A stretch of 11,904 bases of DNA from a virus. This document shows positions 3,234-11,904 of the stretch, piece after piece. Numbering within the stretch: position 1 is the first letter of the stretch; each line of letters opens with the position of its first letter. The notes under the pieces were generated by a model. The model searched no databases and was not told the origin of the DNA. It saw only the letters and a list, made by a program, of their open reading frames with translations. The position numbers and the translations under genes were made by a program. Where the stretch lies: the UHGV virus genome UHGV-2157276; one strand, given 5' to 3'.

Positions 3234-3370
3234 TGTTTGAGTTTAATATGGCAGAACTTCTTCGCCACCGCTGGATGCGCCTGCGCTTATATCGTTTCCC
3301 CAGTTCTGTTTTGACCGATTACCGAATACTGAGGAATTACGCCAAAACCCTGACAGGAGCAGGAGTATGA
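3230..3370 (+). CDS. ylcG: Small protein YlcG-like, 46 aa; not in the supplied ORF track
   Basis: ATGATG at 3230-3235 overlaps the rusA stop (3231-3233). Hand translation gives [46 protein letters not shown], stop TGA at 3368-3370. Matches DLP12 YlcG from memory. Confidence 0.6.
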
Positions 3371-3455
3371 AGTCAGAGATAACAATCAACTAATACTGTT
3401 TTATTGATTTTTGCTTGTAATTGGCGTTCTGGTCTGATTTTTGTGGAGTAAGTTG

Positions 3456-3839
3456 ATGCGTGATATTCAGATGGTTCTTGAGCGTTGGGGAGCGTGGGCG
3501 GCTAATAATCATGAAGATGTGACCTGGTCGTCCATTGCCGCCGGTTTTAAGGGATTAATTACTTCAAAAGTAAAATCTCGCCCGCAATGTTGTGACGATG
3601 ACGCGATGATCATTTGCGGGTGCATGGCCCGTCTGAAAAAGAACAACAGCGATTTGCACGATTTATTAGTAGATTATTATGTAGTCGGTATGACATTCAT
3701 GTCACTGGCAGGTAAGCATTGCTGCTCTGATGGTTATATCGGGAAAAGGTTACAGAAGGCTGAGGGTATAATTGAAGGGATGTTAATGGCATTAGATATC
3801 CGGTTAGAGATGGATATCGTTGTTAATAACTCTAATTAA
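3456..3839 (+). CDS. quuD: Late-gene antiterminator Q (QuuD-type), 127 aa
   Basis: ATG at 3456 preceded by GGAG (3445-3448, 7-nt spacer). Protein [24 protein letters not shown]...[11 protein letters not shown]. The ORF track starts at an upstream TTG (3441), which is less likely. Confidence 0.85.
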
Positions 3840-3849
3840 TATGCCAATT

Positions 3850-3891
3850 GTTTACTAAAAATTATTAAAAATGGGGCGTTGAGACGCCCCC
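3850..3891 (-). terminator. Intrinsic terminator for the minus-strand porin transcript
   Basis: Stem GGGGCGT / loop TGAG / ACGCCCC at 3873-3890; on the minus strand it is followed by ATTTTTAATAATTTTT. Confidence 0.5.
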
Positions 3892-3978
3892 AAAAATAAA
3901 GGGTAATATATAACAGAAGGTTTATATAGTTAGAAGCAAGGTTGTGCTCCTAAAGGAAGTGGCTTGAGGGAGCCACTT

Positions 3979-4012
3979 ATATGTTGGGGAGGCAAAGCCT
4001 CCCGCAACATAT
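3979..4012. terminator. Long stem-loop between Q and the nmpC 3' end; possible plus-strand terminator or mRNA-stabilising hairpin
   Basis: ATATGTTG-GGGAGGC / loop AAA / GCCTCCC-g-CAACATAT, a 15-bp stem with one bulge, followed on the plus strand by CTTTTAG. A second hairpin AAGTGGCT-tgaggg-AGCCACTT lies at 3957-3978. Confidence 0.4.
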
Positions 4013-4027
4013 CTTTTAGTAATCAAA

Positions 4028-5110
4028 TTAGAACTGGTAAACCATACCTACAGCAACGATATCATCGGTAGCAACGCCAGATGCTTTCGTGAAATCGCTC
4101 TTATCAATCAGGTTGATTTTGTAATCAACAAAAGTGGACATATTTTTGTTGAAGTAATAGGTTGCACCTACATCAATATATTCAACCAGGTCCTGATCAC
4201 CCCACGCACCCAAGTCTTTTCCTTTAGATTGCAGGTAAGCAACGGACGGACGCAGACCGAAGTCGAACTGATATTGTGCAACTACTTCGAAGTTTTGTGC
4301 TTTGTTGGCAATATGGTTATTACCAAAAACAGTCATGTTCTGGGTTTCAGAATAGGTGGTAGCCAGATAGATGTTGTTCGCATCATATTTCAGACCAGCT
4401 GCCCATACTTCAGCATTTTGACCAGATGCATTCAGGCTGTTGTTACCGTAGATAACCTGATTATTAGTGCGGTCAGATTTAGCATAGGTTGCACCTACAC
4501 CGAATCCTTCATACTCATAAGTAGTGGAGAAACCGAAACCATCACCATTAGCTTCAGTTACGTCAGTGCGGTCATTTTTACCCTGATACTGAGCAGCAAA
4601 GTTCAGACCATCAACCAGACCAAAGAAGTCATTGTTACGATAAGTTGCAACACCTGTGGTGCGACCAGTCATGAATACATCTGTTTGGGTCCAGGTATCG
4701 CCACCGAATTCTGGCAGAACGTCGGTCCATGCACCAATATCGTATGCTACACCGTAGTTACGGCCATAATCGATGGAGCCGTAGTCACCGAATTTCAGGC
4801 CAGCGAAGGCAAGACGGGTTTTATCTTTGGAGGAACCTTGAGATTCAGCGCGGTTGCCTTTGAATTCATATTCCCACTGACCGAAACCAGTCAGTTGATC
4901 GTTGATTTGGGTTTCACCTTTGAAGCCAAGACGGGCATAAGTAGTATCACCATCATCTGCATCATTAGAGGAGAAGTAGTGCTTAGCATTAACTTTCCCG
5001 TACAGATCCAGCTTGTTACTGTCTTTATTATAAATTTCAGCTGCCTGAGCAGACATCGCCATCAGTACTGATGCAGCTACAGCAGAAATTGCCACTGTTA
5101 ATTTTTTCAT
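4028..5110 (-). CDS. nmpC: General-diffusion porin of the OmpC/PhoE/NmpC family, apparently intact (360 aa)
   Basis: Start ATG at 5108-5110 gives [23 protein letters not shown] signal peptide then [16 protein letters not shown]; C-terminus ends VAVGMVYQF with the terminal Phe typical of porins. The ORF track's upstream start (5185) adds 25 non-porin residues. No IS interruption. Confidence 0.9.
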
Positions 5111-5140
5111 CGTGAGCCCTTTTTTTGAACTATTATTAAA

Positions 5141-5170
5141 AAATGATGTCACTGCAAATGATGTCACTGC
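5141..5170. repeat. Perfect tandem direct repeat, 2 x 15 bp (AAATGATGTCACTGC), 31-60 nt upstream of the nmpC start codon
   Basis: Read directly: 5141-5155 and 5156-5170 are identical. Confidence 0.85.
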
Positions 5171-5356
5171 GCGATAAATATTCATCTAATCAATGTGATT
5201 ATTTCAAGATGTAAGTTTTGGTTTCTCATTTGATTTGTGAAGTAGATCTCTATTTTTATCTGAACTTTTTCTATCGAATCCTATTCATGGCTCTTGGCTG
5301 AATAAAAATAAATCTATTAGCCAATTTATATTAATGGCTGTTATTTATAAGTGCTC

Positions 5357-5362
5357 TATAAT
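5357..5362 (+). promoter_or_regulatory. Candidate -10 hexamer of the late promoter (pR'-like)
   Basis: Perfect TATAAT on the plus strand about 190 nt upstream of the terminator at 5552-5584, similar spacing to lambda pR'/tR' (about 194-nt 6S RNA). No convincing -35 found. Confidence 0.3.
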
Positions 5363-5551
5363 TTGAAGATTCAATTTAAACCAGCTAAAAATAACGCTGG
5401 AAATTATTTGTTGGTTATTTGTTGAGATTTGCTTATGTATTTGTAGTGGTGTTTTCAATACTCGGTAGCATTCTCGCAAATATCATTTAGTGGTTTACGT
5501 ACGTAAAAAATTGGTTATGCTGTTAAGAGTGGTTACTTCGTCACACAGCTT

Positions 5552-5584
5552 AAACCCGCCGTCGAGCGGGTTTTTCCATTTTTT
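5552..5584 (+). terminator. Intrinsic terminator upstream of the lysis genes (tR'-like)
   Basis: AAACCCGC / loop CGTCGA / GCGGGTTT followed by TTTTTCCATTTTTT on the plus strand. Confidence 0.6.
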
Positions 5585-5712
5585 GAGTCTCGATATTAGC
5601 TGATAACCCAATACCTGAGTTATTCACTGACTCCGAGTCTGTTACGTTTCTGCTTTTTTGCGATACGTTGTATTCCCTCAATTTACACCCGCTTTGTCTG
5701 CGAGGTGGGGTT

Positions 5713-5928
5713 ATGAAATCCATGGATAAGTTAACAACGGGTGTCGCCTATGGCACCTCAGCAGGTAGTGCCGGTTACTGGTTTTTACAGCTGCTCGATA
5801 AAGTCACGCCCTCACAGTGGGCAGCAATAGGTGTGCTGGGTAGCCTGGTATTTGGCCTGCTGACGTACCTGACAAACCTTTATTTCAAGATTAAAGAAGA
5901 TAAGCGCAAGGCTGCGAGAGGTGAATAA
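5713..5928 (+). CDS. essD: Phage-21-type pinholin with dual-start motif (antiholin/holin), 71 aa
   Basis: ATG at 5713 preceded by [80 protein letters not shown]; two TM segments, Met1-Lys-Ser-Met4 dual start, charged C-terminus. The ORF track start (5668) is upstream with no RBS. Confidence 0.9.
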
Positions 5929-6425
5929 TGCCTCCATCATTACGAAAAGCCGTTGCTGCTGCTATTGGTGGCGGAGCAATTGCTATAGCATCAGTGTTAA
6001 TTACTGGCCCAAGTGGTAACGATGGTCTGGAAGGTGTCAGCTACGTACCATACAAAGATATCGTTGGCGTATGGACTGTATGTCACGGACACACCGGAAA
6101 AGACATCATGCTCGGTAAAACGTATACCAAAGCAGAATGCAAAGCACTCTTGAATAAAGACCTTGCCACTGTCGCCAGACAAATTAACCCGTACATCAAA
6201 GTCGATATACCGGAAACAACGCGCGGCGCTCTTTACTCATTCGTTTACAACGTGGGTGCTGGCAATTTCAGAACATCGACGCTTCTTCGCAAAATAAACC
6301 AGGGCGATATCAAAGGCGCATGTGATCAGCTACGTCGCTGGACATATGCTGGCGGTAAGCAATGGAAAGGTCTCATGACTCGTCGTGAGATTGAGCGTGA
6401 AATCTGTTTGTGGGGTCAGCAATGA
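5928..6425 (+). CDS. rrrD: SAR endolysin (T4-lysozyme-like, phage 21 R-type), 165 aa
   Basis: Start overlaps the holin stop (TAATG). N-terminal Gly/Ala-rich weakly hydrophobic segment [18 protein letters not shown] (signal-anchor-release domain), followed by an E..D..T motif region ([17 protein letters not shown]). Confidence 0.9.
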
Positions 6426-6883
6426 ACAGAGTAACCGCGATTATCTCCGCTCTGGTTATCTGCATCATCGTCTACCTGTCATGGGCTGTTAATCATTACC
6501 GTGATAACGCCATTACCTACAAAGCCCAGCGCGACAAAAATGCCAGAGAACTGAAGCTGGCGAACGCGGCAATTACTGACATGCAGATGCGTCAGCGTGA
6601 TGTTGCTGCGCTCGATGCAAAATACACGAAGGAGTTAGCTGATGCGAAAGCTGAAAATGATGCTCTGCGTGATGATGTTGCCGCTGGTCGTCGTCGGTTG
6701 CACATCAAAGCAGTCTGTCAGTCAGTGCGTGAAGCCACCACCGCCTCCGGCGTGGATAATGCAGCCTCCCCCCGACTGGCAGACACCGCTGAACGGGATT
6801 ATTTCACCCTCAGAGAGAGGCTGATCACTATGCAAAAACAACTGGAAGGAACCCAGAAGTATATTAATGAGCAGTGCAGATAG
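6422..6883 (+). CDS. rzpD: Spanin inner-membrane subunit Rz, 153 aa
   Basis: ATG at 6422 overlaps the endolysin stop (ATGA). N-terminal TM segment [19 protein letters not shown] then coiled-coil-like sequence. From the start of this gene the DNA appears lambda-like. Confidence 0.9.
6642..6824 (+). CDS. rzoD: Spanin outer-membrane lipoprotein Rz1, 60 aa, embedded in the +1 frame of Rz
   Basis: [20 protein letters not shown] lipoprotein signal with lipobox, Pro-rich mature region [16 protein letters not shown]; entirely inside Rz. Confidence 0.85.
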
Positions 6884-6884
6884 A

Positions 6885-6906
6885 GTTGCCCATATCGATG
6901 GGCAAC
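6885..6906. terminator. Hairpin between convergent Rz and bor; possible bidirectional terminator
   Basis: GTTGCCCAT / ATCG / ATGGGCAAC, 9-bp perfect arms, 2 nt after the Rz stop and 9 nt before the bor stop. U-tracts are weak on both strands. Confidence 0.4.
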
Positions 6907-6914
6907 TCATGCAA

Positions 6915-7208
6915 TTATTGTGAGCAATACACACGCGCTTCCAGCGGAGTATAAATGCCTAAAGTAATAAAACCGAGCAATCCATTTACGAATGTTTGCT
7001 GGGTTTCTGTTTTAACAACATTTTCTGCGCCGCCACAAATTTTGGCTGCATCGACAGTTTTCTTCTGCCCAATTCCAGAAACGAAGAAATGATGGGTGAT
7101 GGTTTCCTTTGGTGCTACTGCTGCCGGTTTGTTTTGAACAGTAAACGTCTGTTGAGCACATCCTGTAATAAGCAGGGCCAGCGCAGTAGCGAGTAGCATT
7201 TTTTTCAT
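6915..7208 (-). CDS. bor: Bor outer-membrane lipoprotein, 97 aa
   Basis: MKKMLLATALALLITGC signal with lipobox, then AQQTFTVQNKPAAVAPKETITHHFFVSGIG...; matches lambda Bor from memory. Confidence 0.9.
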   Translation of the reverse strand: MKKMLLATALALLITGCAQQTFTVQNKPAAVAPKETITHHFFVSGIGQKKTVDAAKICGGAENVVKTETQQTFVNGLLGFITLGIYTPLEARVYCSQ

Positions 7209-7498
7209 GGTGTTATTCCCGATGCTTTTTGAAGTTCGCAGAATCGTATGTGTAGAAAATTAAACAAACCCTAAACAATGAGTTGAAATTTCATATTGTT
7301 AATATTTATTAATGTATGTCAGGTGCGATGAATCGTCATTGTATTCCCGGATTAACTATGTCCACAGCCCTGACGGGGAACTTCTCTGCGGGAGTGTCCG
7401 GGAATAATTAAAAACGATGCACACAGGGTTTAGCGCGTACACGTATTGCATTATGCCAACGCCCCGGTGCTGACACGGAAGAAACCGGACGTTATGAT

Positions 7499-7909
7499 TT
7501 AGCGTGGAAAGATTTGTGTAGTGTTCTGAATGCTCTCAGTAAATAGTAATGAATTATCAAAGGTATAGTAATATCTTTTATGTTCATGGATATTTGTAAC
7601 CCATCGGAAAACTCCTGCTTTAGCAAGATTTTCCCTGTATTGCTGAAATGTGATTTCTCTTGATTTCAACCTATCATAGGACGTTTCTATAAGATGCGTG
7701 TTTCTTGAGAATTTAACATTTACAACCTTTTTAAGTCCTTTTATTAACACGGTGTTATCGTTTTCTAACACGATGTGAATATTATCTGTGGCTAGATAGT
7801 AAATATAATGTGAGACGTTGTGACGTTTTAGTTCAGAATAAAACAATTCACAGTTTAAATCTTTTCGCACTTGATCGAATATTTCTTTAAAAATGGCAAC
7901 CTGAGCCAT
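7499..7909 (-). CDS. ybcV: YbcV-like protein (DUF1398 family), function unknown; 136 aa from the best-supported start
   Basis: ORF on minus strand; the ATG at 7907-7909 ([11 protein letters not shown]...) has AAGG 8 nt upstream. In-frame upstream starts at 7951 (ATG) and 8032 (GTG) lack an RBS. AT-rich gene. Confidence 0.7.
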
Positions 7910-8194
7910 TGGTAAAACCTTCCATGTGATACGAGGGCGCGTAGTTTGCATTATCGTTTTTATCGTTTCAATCTGGTCTGACCTCTTTGTGTTTTGTTGA
8001 TGATTTATGTCAAATATTAGGAATGTTTTCACTTAATAGTATTGGTTGCGTAACAAAGTGCGGTCCTGCTGGCATTCTGGAGGGAAATACAACCGACAGA
8101 TGTATGTAAGGCCAACGTGCTCAAATCTTCATACAGAAAGATTTGAAGTAATATTTTAACCGCTAGATGAAGAGCAAGCGCATGGAGCGACAAA

Positions 8195-8401
8195 ATGAAT
8201 AAAGAACAATCTGCTGATGATCCCTCCGTGGATCTGATTCGTGTAAAAAATATGCTTAATAGCACCATTTCTATGAGTTACCCTGATGTTGTAATTGCAT
8301 GTATAGAACATAAGGTGTCTCTGGAAGCATTCAGAGCAATTGAGGCAGCGTTGGTGAAGCACGATAATAATATGAAGGATTATTCCCTGGTGGTTGACTG
8401 A
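8195..8401 (+). CDS. ybcW: YbcW-like small protein, 68 aa, function unknown
   Basis: ATG at 8195 with GGAG 7 nt upstream; [68 protein letters not shown]. Confidence 0.7.
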
Positions 8402-8565
8402 TCACCATAACTGCTAATCATTCAAACTATTTAGCCTGTGACAGAGCCAACACGCAGTCTGTCACTGTCAGGAAAGTGGTAAAACTGCAACTCAATTACT
8501 GCAATGCCCTCGTAATTAAGTGAATTTACAATATCGTCCTGTTCGGAGGGAAGAACGCGGGATGT

Positions 8566-8760
8566 TCATTCTTCATCACTTTTAATTGATGTATATGCTC
8601 TCTTTTCTGACGTTAGTCTCCGACGGCAGGCTTCAATGACCCAGGCTGAGAAATTCCCGGACCCTTTTTGCTCAAGAGCGATGTTAATTTGTTCAATCAT
8701 TTGGTTAGGAAAGCGGATGTTGCGGGTTGTTGTTCTGCGGGTTCTGTTCTTCGTTGACAT
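8566..8760 (-). CDS. ylcI: YlcI-like small protein (64 aa) with predicted ribbon-helix-helix DNA-binding fold
   Basis: MSTKNRTRRTTTRNIRFPNQMIEQINIALEQKGSGNFSAWVIEACRRRL: basic N-terminal tail, beta-strand NIRFP, helix, G-x-N/S turn, second helix. This is the RHH (CopG/Arc/ParD-like) pattern. Confidence 0.7.
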   Translation of the reverse strand: MSTKNRTRRTTTRNIRFPNQMIEQINIALEQKGSGNFSAWVIEACRRRLTSEKRAYTSIKSDEE

Positions 8761-8959
8761 GAGGTTGCCCCGTATTCAGTGTCGCTGATTTGTATTGTCT
8801 GAAGTTGTTTTTACGTTAAGTTGATGCAGATCAATTAATACGATACCTGCGTCATAATTGATTATTTGACGTGGTTTGATGGCGTAGATGCACGTTGTGA
8901 CATGTAGATGATAATTATTATCATTTTGCGGGTCCTTTCCGGCGATCCGACAGGTTACG

Positions 8960-8971
8960 GGGCGGCGACCT
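8960..8971. other. cosN: lambda 12-nt cohesive-end site (GGGCGGCGACCT), flanked by cosQ-like and cosB-like sequence
   Basis: Exact GGGCGGCGACCT preceded by ...GATCCGACAGGTTACG (lambda right end) and followed by TCGCGGGTTTTCGCTATTTATGAAAATTTTCCGG (lambda left end). Confidence 0.85.
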
Positions 8972-9148
8972 CGCGGGTTTTCGCTATTTATGAAAATTTT
9001 CCGGTTTAAGGCGTTTCCGTTCTTCTTCGTCATAACTTAATGTTTTTATTTAAAATACCCTCTGAAAAGAAAGGAAGCGACAGGTGCTGAAAGCGAGCTT
9101 TTTGGCCTCTGTCGTTTCCTTTCTCTGTTTTTGTCCGTGGAATGAACA

Positions 9149-9694
9149 ATGGAAGTCAACAAAAAGCAGCTGGCTGACATTTTCGGTGCGAGTATCCGTA
9201 CCATTCAGAACTGGCAGGAACAGGGAATGCCCGTTCTGCGAGGCGGTGGCAAGGGTAATGAGGTGCTTTATGACTCTGCCGCCGTCATAAAATGGTATGC
9301 CGAAAGGGATGCTGAAATTGAGAACGAAAAGCTGCGCCGGGAGGTTGAAGAACTGCGGCAGGCCAGCGAGGCAGATCTCCAGCCAGGGACTATTGAGTAC
9401 GAACGCCATCGACTTACGCGTGCGCAGGCCGACGCACAGGAGCTGAAAAATGCCAGAGACTCCGCTGAAGTGGTGGAAACCGCATTCTGTACTTTCGTGC
9501 TGTCGCGGATCGCAGGTGAAATTGCCAGTATTCTCGACGGGATCCCCCTGTCGGTGCAGCGGCGTTTTCCGGAACTGGAAAACCGACATGTTGATTTCCT
9601 GAAACGGGATATCATCAAAGCCATGAACAAAGCAGCCGCGCTGGATGAACTGATACCGGGGTTGCTGAGTGAATATATCGAACAGTCAGGTTAA
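9149..9694 (+). CDS. nu1: Terminase small subunit Nu1, 181 aa, full length
   Basis: MEVNKKQLADIFGASIRTIQNWQEQGMPVLRGGGKGNEVLYDSAAVIKWYAERDAEIENEKLRR...; N-terminal winged-HTH. Overlaps the A start by 26 nt as in lambda. Confidence 0.95.
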   Translation: MEVNKKQLADIFGASIRTIQNWQEQGMPVLRGGGKGNEVLYDSAAVIKWYAERDAEIENEKLRREVEELRQASEADLQPGTIEYERHRLTRAQADAQELKNARDSAEVVETAFCTFVLSRIAGEIASILDGIPLSVQRRFPELENRHVDFLKRDIIKAMNKAAALDELIPGLLSEYIEQSG

Positions 9695-10730
9695 CAGGCT
9701 GCGGCATTTTGTCCGCGCCGGGCTTCGCTCACTGTTCAGGCCGGAGCCACAGACCGCCGTTGAATGGGCGGATGCTAATTACTATCTCCCGAAAGAATCC
9801 GCATACCAGGAAGGGCGCTGGGAAACACTGCCCTTTCAGCGGGCCATCATGAATGCGATGGGCAGCGACTACATCCGCGAGGTGAATGTGGTGAAGTCTG
9901 CCCGTGTTGGTTATTCCAAAATGCTGTTGGGTGTTTATGCCTACTTCATAGAGCATAAGCAGCGCAACACACTTATCTGGTTGCCGACGGATGGTGATGC
10001 CGAGAACTTTATGAAAACCCACGTTGAGCCGACCATCCGCGATATTCCGTTGCTGCTGGCGCTGGCTCCGTGGTATGGCAAAAAGCACCGGGATAACACG
10101 CTCACCATGAAGCGTTTTTCCAATGGTCGTGGCTTCTGGTGCCTGGGCGGTAAAGCGGCAAAAAACTACCGTGAAAAGTCGGTGGATGTGGCGGGTTATG
10201 ATGAACTTGCTGCCTTTGATGAGGATATTGAACAGGAAGGCTCTCCGACGTTCCTTGGCGACAAACGTATTGAAGGCTCGGTCTGGCCAAAGTCCATCCG
10301 TGGCTCCACCCCCAAAGTGAGAGGCACCTGCCAGATTGAGCGTGCAGCCAGTGAATCCCCGCATTTTATGCGTTTTCATGTTGCCTGTCCGCACTGCGGG
10401 GAGGAGCAGTACCTTAAATTTGGCGATAAAGAGACGTCGTTTGGCCTCAAATGGACGCCGGATGATCCCTCCAGCGTGTTTTATCTCTGCGAACATAATG
10501 CCTGCGTCATCCGCCAGCAGGAACTGGACTTCACTGATGCCCGTTATATCTGCGAAAAGACCGGGATCTGGACCCGTGATGGCATTCTCTGGTTTTCGTC
10601 ATCCGGTGAAGAGATTGAGCCGCCGGACAGCGTGACCTTTCACATCTGGACGGCGTACAGCCCGTTCACCACCTGGGTGCAGATTGTCAAAGACTGGATG
10701 AAAACGAAAGGGGATACCTTCTGCCCGTAA
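9669..10730 (+). pseudogene. A: Terminase large subunit gpA, N-terminal 350 of about 641 codons, truncated at a deletion junction
   Basis: MNISNSQVNRLRHFVRAGLRSLF...[14 protein letters not shown] then 3 unrelated codons (FCP) and stop. Walker-A-like KSARVGYSK is present; the C-terminal nuclease half is absent. Confidence 0.85.
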
Positions 10731-11904
10731 GGTGAATGGTAAGGCGCTTTCAGCGGATATAACACTGACGCCGAAAGATATTGGTACGCTTAACTCAACA
10801 ACAATGTCATTCAGCGGTGGTGCTGGTTGGTTCAAATTAGCAACGGTAACCATGCCACAGGCGAGTTCTGTTGTTTCAATTACGTTGATTGGTGGCGCGG
10901 GATTTAACGTGGGGTCACCTCAACAGGCAGGTATATCTGAACTTGTTTTGCGTGCAGGTAATGGTAATCCGAAGGGGATTACTGGTGCTTTATGGCAGCG
11001 CACATCGACAGGGTTTACAAATTTTGCCTGGGTCAATACATCTGGTGATACTTACGATATTTACGTTGCAATCGGAAATTATGCGACTGGTGTAAATATT
11101 CAATGGGATTATACCAGTAATGCCAGCGTGACGATTCATACGTCACCAGCATATTCTGCTAATAAGCCGGAAGGGTTAACGGACGGTACAGTTTATTCAC
11201 TCTATACGCCATCAGAGCAGTTTTATCCGCCTGGCGCACCAATCCCGTGGCCATCAGATACCGTTCCGTCTGGCTATGCCCTGATGCAGGGGCAGACTTT
11301 TGACAAATCTGCATACCCGAAACTTGCAGCCGCTTATCCGTCAGCCGTGATCCCTGATATGCGTGGCTGGACGATTAAGGGCAAACCCGCCAGTGGTCGT
11401 GCCGTATTGTCTCAGGAACAGGACGGCATTAAATCGCACACCCACAGCGCCAGCGCATCCAGTACGGATTTGGGGACGAAAAACACATCGTCGTTTGATT
11501 ACGGAACCAAATCCACGAATAACACCGGGGCGCATACCCATAGTATTAGCGGGACTGCAAATAGTGCCGGTGCGCACCAACACAAGAGTTCCGGTGCATT
11601 TGGTGGCACGAACACGAGCATTTTCCCTAATGGTTATACCGCGATTTCAAATCTAAGCGCGGGGATTATGAGCACAACAAGCGGTAGTGGCCAGACTCGT
11701 AATGCAGGGAAGACATCATCAGATGGTGCTCATACCCACTCGCTGTCCGGCACTGCTGCAAGCGCAGGCGCACATGCACATACTGTCGGTATTGGTGCTC
11801 ATACGCACTCCGTTGCGATTGGCTCACACGGACACACCATCACCGTTAACGCTGCTGGTAACGCGGAAAACACCGTCAAAAACATCGCATTTAACTATAT
11901 TGTG
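10720..11904 (+). pseudogene. stf: Side tail fibre (Stf-type) gene fragment, 5'-truncated, open to the end of the window
   Basis: Frame 1 is open from 10702 to 11904 and is not in the ORF track because it has no stop. Hand translation ends ...[60 protein letters not shown], the His-x-His repeat C-terminal region of lambda-family Stf. Possible internal starts are GTG 10732 and ATG 10804. Confidence 0.75.

Follow-up and report, generated by a model that had tools for sequence, protein, structure and literature searches.

A defective lambda-type prophage at attB-lambda that retains cos and nu1 beside a truncated terminase gene

Gene order and sequence of the cos region

By gene content and order, the window (the whole stretch of 11,904 nucleotides that was analysed) belongs to a defective prophage of the lambda type, which sits at attB-lambda with ybhC on one side and ybhB-bioA on the other. 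The genes follow each other in the order ybhC, int, xis and, further on, rusA, ylcG, quuD, a porin gene, essD, rrrD, rzpD, bor, ybcV, ybcW and ylcI; after ylcI come the cohesive-end site (cos), nohD, a truncated large terminase gene (A'), a side tail fibre remnant (stf'), tfa and, beyond these, ybhB and bioA (see Table 1 for coordinates). Q, the lysis genes essD, rrrD and rzpD, cos and nohD were present and head and tail-shaft genes were absent, which places the element among the defective lambdoid prophages of the DLP12/Qin kind. It is a new example of an E. coli remnant type that has already been studied under the names nohD and nohA. An att core, GCTTTTTTATACTAA, which we take to be the lambda att core sequence, was found at position 1331 beside intact int and xis genes. 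Because gal side, int, Q, lysis genes, cos, nu1 and bio side succeed each other as they do in a lambda prophage, packaging from this cos would be expected to run toward bio.

The best-matching genome was that of strain A14, which showed 99.8–100% identity but carried an additional 5.9 kb of early-region DNA, relative to which the early region of the window is reduced. The idea that the element is locked in place for want of an attR was discarded, as an attR-like core, with one mismatch, lies beside ybhB in A14. The size of the element, ~12.6–18.5 kb, is far below the lambda packaging minimum, and no replication module or replication genes were found in the window. An Rfam scan of the whole window returned no family above threshold. 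Promoter and terminator counts over positions 3300–10900 were not above shuffled expectation, although one promoter-like match overlapped the Fur-box region; with counts at chance level, there was no independent signal for nohD expression beyond that match.

Table 1. Features of the cos region, the terminase genes and the deletion junction, with positions in the window.
Feature	Position	Strand	Observation
cosQ, GGGTCCT, packaging-termination subsite	8930..8936	+	Equals lambda 48473-48479
cosN, 12-nt cohesive-end sequence GGGCGGCGACCT	8960..8971	+	Exact; flanking bases identical to lambda
cosB R3 (lambda bp 50-65), critical TerS-binding site	9009..9024	+	Identical to lambda
I1 region, IHF bend site between R3 and R2	9025..9067	+	No lambda/DE3 difference
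cosB R2, inverted	9068..9083	-	One private substitution, 9077 G (lambda bp 118 A)
cosB R1, exact 16-mer CTGTCGTTTCCTTTCT	9109..9124	+	As in lambda
nu1 / nohD, full-length small terminase, 181 aa	9149..9694	+	Pfam Phage_Nu1, E=9e-101
A', truncated large terminase	9669..10730	+	gpA codons 1-350 + FCP-stop
stf', C-terminal ~400 codons of side tail fibre	10714..11904	+	Pfam Collar + Phage_fiber repeat
Deletion junction, 3-bp microhomology TAC	10715..10717	+	Three-way alignment of lambda A, window and intact stf

The cohesive-end 12-mer of cosN occurred only once in the window, against a chance expectation of 0.02 with one mismatch allowed. It sits inside a segment (8560–10717) that is collinear with lambda 48103–48502 followed by lambda 1–1759, with 49 mismatches in 2158 bp and no rearrangement, so that the 2.2 kb around cos are 97.7% identical to lambda. 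This unique, exact match within a long collinear segment confirms the first-pass annotation, made from the letters of the sequence, in its description of a cosN with lambda-like flanks. The cosQ subsite, whose definition is reportedly that of Wieczorek and Feiss in 2001, lies at the lambda distance from cosN with no insertion or deletion between them. The cosN sequence itself was invariant in lambda/DE3, Turner, PhiR11_1, Kati, DLP12 and Qin, and its flanks matched those of lambda and three isolated phages. Downstream of cosN, the spacer up to R3 was identical to lambda, and the cosB elements followed in the order R3, I1, R2 (inverted) and R1 with their spacing from cosN unchanged. Subsites were defined according to Murialdo and Feiss 2022 (PMC9026076), which gives the extent and importance of R3, and Feiss et al. 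2015 (PMC4669245), which describes the role of cosQ; the role of I1 is described in both. Compared with the plaque-forming isolates Turner and PhiR11_1, the only difference in the interval 8900–9160 was at position 9077 in R2. An apparent 1-bp deletion in cosB between R2 and R1 (lambda bp 138) was dismissed as a change in the window; the same gap was common to DE3, DLP12, Qin and all other copies examined, and it is therefore a quirk of the old lambda reference.

Immediately downstream, nu1 (named nohD by PGAP in strain A14) is an intact open reading frame. Its product matched PF07471 over model positions 1–164 of 164, differed from lambda Nu1 only by L132I and was 100% identical to the TerS proteins of phages ev099, Turner, PhiR26_1 and PhiR47_2. 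The gene had been called complete in the first-pass annotation, and its length, the full Pfam model and the identity with phage TerS proteins leave that description intact. Judged by these identities, the resident Nu1 should be fully competent as a TerS. Relative to lambda, nu1 showed a pS of 0.02, compared with a pS of 0.14 and a pN/pS of 0.04 for the adjacent A', and this difference suggests that the cos-nu1 block has been homogenised among lambdoid elements. Over 9 kb, the window and A14 differed at only three positions (9442, 9448 and 9500), all of them synonymous and all in nu1. Across this 59-bp patch the window has DLP12/Qin-type bases and three sister lineages agree with each other. 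The patch is a short gene-conversion tract, and its DLP12/Qin-type alleles show that exchange between copies is ongoing. We also considered the NohA/NohD "mutations" of PMC11297538 and rejected them as such, since the changes at residues 48 and 70 are swaps to the allele of the paralogue and look like paralogue exchange or read mis-mapping.

The gene that follows, A', starts at the GTG used by lambda, overlaps nu1 as in lambda and encodes 353 aa, compared with 641 for lambda gpA. The two proteins are collinear over 350 codons with four amino-acid changes. The ATPase domain (GpA_ATPase, PF05876; residues 47–285) is complete in A', whereas only residues 322–349 remain of the nuclease domain (GpA_nuclease, PF20454), which spans residues 322–600 in lambda gpA; this remnant scored 17.2 bits against a cut-off of 22.5. 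A' is thus not a full gpA, which combines an ATPase, an endonuclease and a C-terminal portal-binding end, and PGAP labelled it 'incomplete; missing C-terminus' in A14. The statement from the first reading of the sequence that gpA lacks its C-terminal half was correct, as a stop follows shortly after codon 350 and the nuclease domain is lost. A PDB sequence search with lambda gpA found no solved relative, so these domain limits are those of Pfam. The N-terminal segment of lambda gpA binds Nu1, and this segment is present in A'. The differences between A' and lambda A comprised 32 synonymous and four non-synonymous changes, a predominance of synonymous change which indicates that the divergence arose under purifying selection, while the gene was still in working phages.

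The deletion junction and its relatives in other genomes

At the junction, gpA codon 350 is joined out of frame to approximately codon 589 of a 987-aa side tail fibre, and ~19–20 kb of head and tail genes are missing. The tail fibre remnant is read in a different frame from A' and continues past the end of the window; in A14 it is annotated as 'phage tail protein, missing N-terminus'. No match to head or tail-shaft proteins was found anywhere in the window, which agrees with the earlier observation that capsid genes are absent. With its short microhomology, the junction between A codon 350 and stf (A350|stf) has the form of an ordinary illegitimate deletion, and A' is probably an inert by-product of where that deletion ended.

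The distribution of the region was examined in 5426 complete E. coli genomes. A 770-bp cos-nu1 block was found (at ≥80% coverage) in 3916 of them (72%), with a median of two matching places per genome having any, and the 3' half of a lambda-type A was found in 3245 genomes. It follows that at least 671 genomes carry the block without any lambda-type nuclease half. The A350|stf junction was present in 11 of the 5426 genomes. The junction probe matched a single place in each of these 11 and detected no second lambda-type gene A in any of them, so the cognate terminase must come from outside. For comparison, the DLP12 junction occurred in ~366 genomes and the Qin junction in ~372.

Relatives at the same locus ranged from those with a complete late region (Res13 and F95) to at least five different deletion junctions, which were A350|stf, A350|J, A519|stf, A81|tfa and Nu1-120|stf. 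In VE-V10-F, APEC O78 and at least 20 others, A350 was joined to codon ~821 of J at a GATA microhomology. In E24377A, A519 was joined to a short stf'; in VG48B2, A81 was joined to tfa; and in 23CRST021, Nu1 ended at codon 120, where a longer stf fragment followed. Of 28 loci in viral contigs, which had been chosen by the 9077 G allele of R2 alone, 11 had full-length gpA; among the rest were junctions in Nu1, at codons 18, 61 and ~170, and in A, at codons 350 and 539. We considered whether the window junction derived from the A350|J type of VE-V10-F. A synthetic probe made of the window A' allele and J' detected the J junction at 97.0% in at least 22 genomes, always on the other A' allele, and the A' allele of the window continues to codon 519 in E24377A. 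This derivation was therefore rejected, and the two A350 events are independent.

Because the sister elements carry such varied junctions, the combination of an intact Nu1 with A' reads as a snapshot of decay and not as a selected module. Any implication in the first-pass annotation that an intact Nu1 was specially retained is not sustained by sister elements, at this locus and elsewhere, in which the gene is cut at codons 18, 61, 120 or ~170.

It had also been proposed that the resident Nu1 and the N-terminal part of gpA could titrate or otherwise interfere with the terminase of an incoming phage. Under such a scheme, incoming Q would trans-activate the resident late operon, and NohD and gpA(1–350) would form dead-end protomers that sequester phage TerS or occupy cosB, thereby lowering phage yield with an outcome like that of the Rpp protein of phage-inducible chromosomal islands (PICIs). 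A' does combine the N-terminal segment with which lambda gpA binds Nu1, and a complete ATPase domain, with the loss of the nuclease and portal-binding end, and the overlapping nu1 and A' genes keep a translationally coupled arrangement and their native start codons. TerS-binding hijackers also have a precedent in E. coli islands (PMC9026076). A single-copy locus without replication genes would, however, face a replicating phage at a very unfavourable stoichiometry, and in sister elements A' or part of nu1 is gone (A81, Nu1-120, Nu1-61 and Nu1-18). The rarity of the junction, with nothing that points to selection for the pair, its out-of-frame fusion at a microhomology and the chance-level frequency of promoter-like sites likewise argue against a dedicated function. 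In classical complementation, A amber fragments are recessive, and K-12, which has both NohD and NohA, is the standard permissive host of lambda; both facts count against interference. We consider it extremely unlikely that the pair forms such protomers, and just as unlikely that they lower the yield of an incoming phage in this way.

The R2 allele and predicted cutting of cos in trans

The G at position 9077 occupies the R2 position equivalent to bp 55 of R3, within the conserved CGTTTCC core; by the limits set for R3, this is the edge of the segment contacted by TerS (PMC9026076). It was found in 179 of the 5426 complete genomes and in 0 of 87 matching records of an isolated-phage collection. 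In the first set of loci compared, all five truncated-A elements had the G allele and none of the eight others did (four phages, two late-complete prophages and two K-12 remnants). This pattern would fit a dead cos, in a block of inert sequence that no terminase uses because the substitution cripples TerS binding. When viral contigs were scanned for exact matches, the allele nevertheless lay beside full-length gpA in 11 of the 28 loci. Wherever these contigs reach far enough, the W, portal, protease, D, major capsid, FI, U and V genes were complete as well, and the proposal that 9077 G marks a dead clade was rejected on these grounds. The allele was also common to elements with different left arms (E24377A and A14), as expected of an allele that once circulated in viable phages. 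Furthermore, this transition does most harm in R3 and less in R2 or R1, and R3 alone suffices for packaging in phage N15 (PMC9026076). We therefore regard a dead cos as very unlikely. The cos site of the window is very probably functional, perhaps at slightly lower efficiency, since the position of 9077 at the TerS contact edge and its absence from isolated phages make some loss of initiation efficiency possible. The description of cos as "functional-looking" in the first-pass annotation was thus apt; the site is one base removed from those of plaque-forming phages, and that base also occurs beside complete terminase, portal and capsid genes.

The reading that we favour, and consider likely, is that the element is an inert remnant with a cos that can be cut in trans by a terminase of lambda specificity, that packaging would then proceed rightward without termination and that the consequence is recombination. 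As far as can be read from its sequence, the region represents the end at which a lambda-type prophage at attB-lambda would start packaging. A single illegitimate deletion, from gpA codon 350 to the middle of stf, would have removed the head and tail genes; most of the early region would also have been lost in this strain, leaving an element with no autonomous function. Any terminase with the cosB specificity of lambda, brought in by an infecting phage or made by a co-resident one, would recognise its cos. TerL would nick cosN, and the terminase would remain on the nu1 side and move rightward through nohD, A', stf' and tfa toward ybhB-bioA. As no downstream cosQ-cosN is evident in the same orientation, packaging could not terminate and would yield one-ended 'docL-like' heads without tails instead of transducing particles. 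Classical lambda doc particles provide a parallel, as they too are packaged from a chromosomal cos toward bio. The cut cos, together with 2.2 kb of lambda identity, would be a hot substrate for exchange with lambdoid phages and with the nohD/nohA paralogues.

For this strain, we infer the cutting, the direction of packaging and the lack of termination from the arrangement of the locus. That a helper phage of lambda specificity could cut the chromosomal cos, as suggested in the first-pass annotation, is plausible and has good precedents in DLP12 and in helper-packaging strains. Its further suggestion of productive packaging and transduction of flanking DNA is unlikely to hold, as lambda needs a second cosQ-cosN downstream and none was evident. 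Whereas initiation requires cosN and cosB, termination requires cosQ and cosN (PMC4669245).

A different view of the same region is that the orphan cos was kept as a packaging origin, because it lets helper phages move the element or neighbouring chromosomal DNA, either from cos to cos with a second cos located 38–51 kb downstream or by satellite-like packaging. The persistence of cos in every decay variant examined, even where nu1 is cut to 18–120 codons, would be expected under this view, as would the abundance of the cos-nu1 block, including the genomes that lack the A 3' half. The int and xis genes are intact and att cores flank the element. The variants were, however, all found through homology that includes or adjoins cos, and deletions that removed cos went unsampled; to our knowledge, Rac in K-12 has no cos-nu1, which also counts against selection for it. 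The element lies below the lambda packaging minimum and has no replication module, its lysis genes and its lack of alpA, primase and rpp set it apart from PICIs, and no second downstream cos is known. Both routes by which a selected origin might operate appear quite improbable, and we retain the reading of an inert remnant cut in trans.

The positions of the endpoints bear on what such remnants may mean more generally. In independent defective prophages, the head-tail deletion has repeatedly stopped a short way to the right of cos. Within Nu1 its endpoint was codon 18, 61, 120, ~170 or 176; within A it was codon 81, 102, 519 or 539, or codon 350, which was hit twice at positions 1 bp apart. 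Throughout, cosQ-cosN-cosB was intact in the seven defective copies that were compared base by base, and cosN was present in the others. It is conceivable, but unlikely, that cos is kept, by selection or by a terminase-linked mechanism, as a chromosomal entry point for helper-phage terminase. If that were true, the retained cos would promote the swapping of modules with incoming phages and, occasionally, the packaging of host DNA from cos to cos, and the textbook position, in which cos phages leave chromosomal DNA unmobilised, would need to be qualified. The cos-nu1 reservoir also bears on the assumption that cos phages cannot package chromosomal DNA since two cos sites are never suitably spaced (PMC6687093). 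On its own, the present locus carries little weight, being another nohD/nohA-type remnant of a kind known in K-12 for decades. Its modest value lies in a well-resolved decay series, from late-complete relatives to at least five head-tail deletions, and in its place within a very large cos-nu1 reservoir that is relevant to the acquisition of packaging modules through lambdoid phage recombination.

Comparison with known packaging islands, helper strains and K-12 remnants

Cos-type PICIs resemble the element in that a winged-helix TerS-like gene follows a lambda-like cosQ-cosN on the chromosome, and in their dependence on the TerL of a helper (PMC9026076). By the criteria of that study, the element is not a member of this group. 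PICIs have no R3-I1-R2-R1 array and encode Rpp, which lacks a TerL-binding tail (PMC9026076), whereas the window has a full lambda-type cosB, a bona fide Nu1 identical to phage TerS and tail fibre remnants. Lysis genes, absent from PICIs, are present in the window, and the replication module that PICIs possess alongside alpA is not; alpA, pri and rpp were not among the genes annotated in the element.

A closer functional parallel is offered by the helper-packaging strains of the Feiss laboratory, in which the cos of a partial prophage is cut in situ by helper terminase (PMC4669245). Strains MF532 and MF713 have a chromosomal cos at attB-lambda without a terminase or head genes of their own (PMC4669245), and in these strains, as in lambda doc particles, packaging runs from cos toward bio, the direction expected here. 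These strains were engineered, however, and a second cos downstream ends packaging, whereas the window element has one cos. With a single cos in a natural element, productive packaging is not expected.

Among the natural remnants of K-12, Qin shares an orphan lambda-type cos and a Nu1 homologue followed directly by tail fibre genes. It differs in that its endpoint lies inside nu1 (codon 176), so that NohA is fused to stfQ and has a foreign C-terminus, in that no fragment of A is left and in its other chromosomal site.

The closest likeness is to DLP12 of K-12. The two have the same order of quuD, porin gene, essD, rrrD, rzpD, bor, ybcV, ybcW, ylcI, cos and nohD, followed in each case by a truncated A, a tail fibre remnant and an AraC-type gene; DNA identity was 96% over window positions 4086–9976 (from the porin gene to A codon ~102), and DLP12 also has a full-length Nu1 homologue with L132I. 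Differences were found in location and in detail. DLP12 lies at ~0.56–0.59 Mb of K-12, far from the ybhC-bioA site, and has its own integrase; its A is cut at codon ~102 (309 bp, aaaD') and joined to tfaD, compared with codon 350 and mid-stf in the window; its R2 has the lambda base, with several other changes in cosB; and its porin gene, which is intact in the window, is disrupted by IS5 in K-12. In crosses of lambda with DLP12, a 3.35-kb patch recombined ~100-fold more than Qin or Rac, and 10 of 19 sequenced junctions lay directly beside cos (PMC3945230). De Paepe et al. 2014 proposed that double-strand breaks are made at cos in both lambda and DLP12, and recombinants in which DLP12 nu1 replaced lambda nu1 were viable (PMC3945230).

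Probable exchange between nu1 copies

Compared with A14, the best-matching genome, the window carried only three base differences over ~9 kb, all of them within nu1 (the small terminase gene, also nohD), where they were synonymous and grouped in 59 bp. At these positions (see table, in order) A14 and its relatives 23CRST021 and VG48B2, which represent three sister lineages, had A/G/T, whereas the window had G/A/C, the alleles of the K-12 cryptic prophages DLP12 and Qin. Judged from these alleles, the 59-bp patch looks like a short gene-conversion tract, with a paralogous copy of the nohD/nohA type as its putative donor. It was previously reported that phage-surviving K-12 colonies carried the mutations R48K and R70L in NohA, and that NohD was also altered at residues 48 and 70 (PMC11297538, Table 2). 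When NohA and NohD were compared, we observed that these changes go toward the allele of the paralogue. They probably stem from gene conversion between the two cos-nu1 copies, or from reads mapped to the wrong copy, and not from new mutations.

Features discussed, with their positions
Feature	Sequence	Position	Strand	Source
Absence of A14 early-region DNA	window	2841/2842		
The same segment where present	A14 locus	11843-17721		
OmpC/NmpC-like porin gene, intact	window	4028-5110	minus	PGAP
15-bp insertion relative to A14	window	5141-5155		
FNR-site 24-mer	window	8816-8839		
Fur-box-like stretch	window	about 8897-8927		
Sigma-70-like match	window	8897-8924		
cosB R2 A-to-G allele (lambda bp 118)	window	9077		
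Synonymous differences in nu1	window	9442, 9448, 9500		
Gene A deletion junction	window	10716/10717		
Gene A deletion junction	L013	32474		
att-core-like, two mismatches	A14 locus	28787-28801		
att-core-like, one mismatch	A14 locus	30609-30623		

With a pS of 0.02, nu1 showed about one-sixth of the synonymous divergence from lambda seen in the neighbouring A', the truncated terminase gene A (pS 0.14; window 9149-10717). In K-12 DLP12, A codons 1-102 are identical to lambda. These patterns point to a mosaic boundary, or else to recombinational homogenisation that would be centred on cos.

Deletion junctions to the right of cos

Gene A was broken at points within 1 bp of each other by two independent deletions, one in the window and one in L013. 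In the window, codon 350 of A is joined at TAC to the side tail fibre gene stf, while in VE-V10-F, APEC O78 and a further 20 genomes or more, A codon 350 is joined at GATA to codon 821 of J; the A' alleles of the stf-joined and J-joined junctions were 2.8% apart. Given ~10 junctions in ~1.7 kb, such near-coincidence of breakpoints could be due to chance (probability about 0.08); alternatively, AAAGGGGATAC could be a hot spot of microhomology.

Deletions to the right of cos do not always run from terminase to tail fibre. Two IMG/VR contigs kept cos with nu1 cut at codon 18 (L027) or at codon 61 (L033), the latter joined to the middle of the protease gene C and followed by D and the capsid gene. 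Res13 and F95, at the same att site, had IS-disrupted early regions and a complete late region (cos, nohD, a 641-aa A, portal, capsid and tail genes), such that a chromosomal cos lies beside genes for an apparently intact terminase in a prophage whose early region is lost.

Regulator sites upstream of cosQ and the cosB R2 allele

The 24-mer TTAAGTTGATGCAGATCAATTAAT, found in the window, is a predicted FNR site in the upstream region of K-12 nohA/nohB, which is bound by FNR in vivo and in vitro (PMC1802558). The window also has a Fur-box-like stretch, GATGATAATTATTATCA, at a distance of ~233 bp upstream of nu1; for nohA, Fur binding was shown at the corresponding position (PMC2189734). Thus, host regulators bind directly upstream of cosQ. 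A sigma-70-like match (GTGACA, 16 nt, TATCAT) overlaps the Fur-box-like stretch; promoter activity is reported to be low.

The G allele in cosB R2 was present in 179 of 5426 complete genomes and in none of all the isolated phages checked. In prophage contigs, it adjoins complete terminase and head modules.

Early region, att site and porin gene

A14 carries 5.88 kb of early-region DNA that is missing from the window; this segment begins just past xis, includes the ea22-like gene, recT', ren', ybcN and ninE, and extends to ybcO. In the window, rusA thus follows almost directly after int and xis. On the right-hand side of its prophage, A14 has two att-core-like sequences that flank an AraC-family gene and IS remnants beside ybhB. 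This arrangement suggests that the att site holds a second small insert and that attR is possibly still usable. The 15-bp insertion in the window is just upstream of where PGAP places the start of the porin gene. This gene is intact, whereas its K-12 DLP12 homologue, nmpC, is disrupted by IS5.
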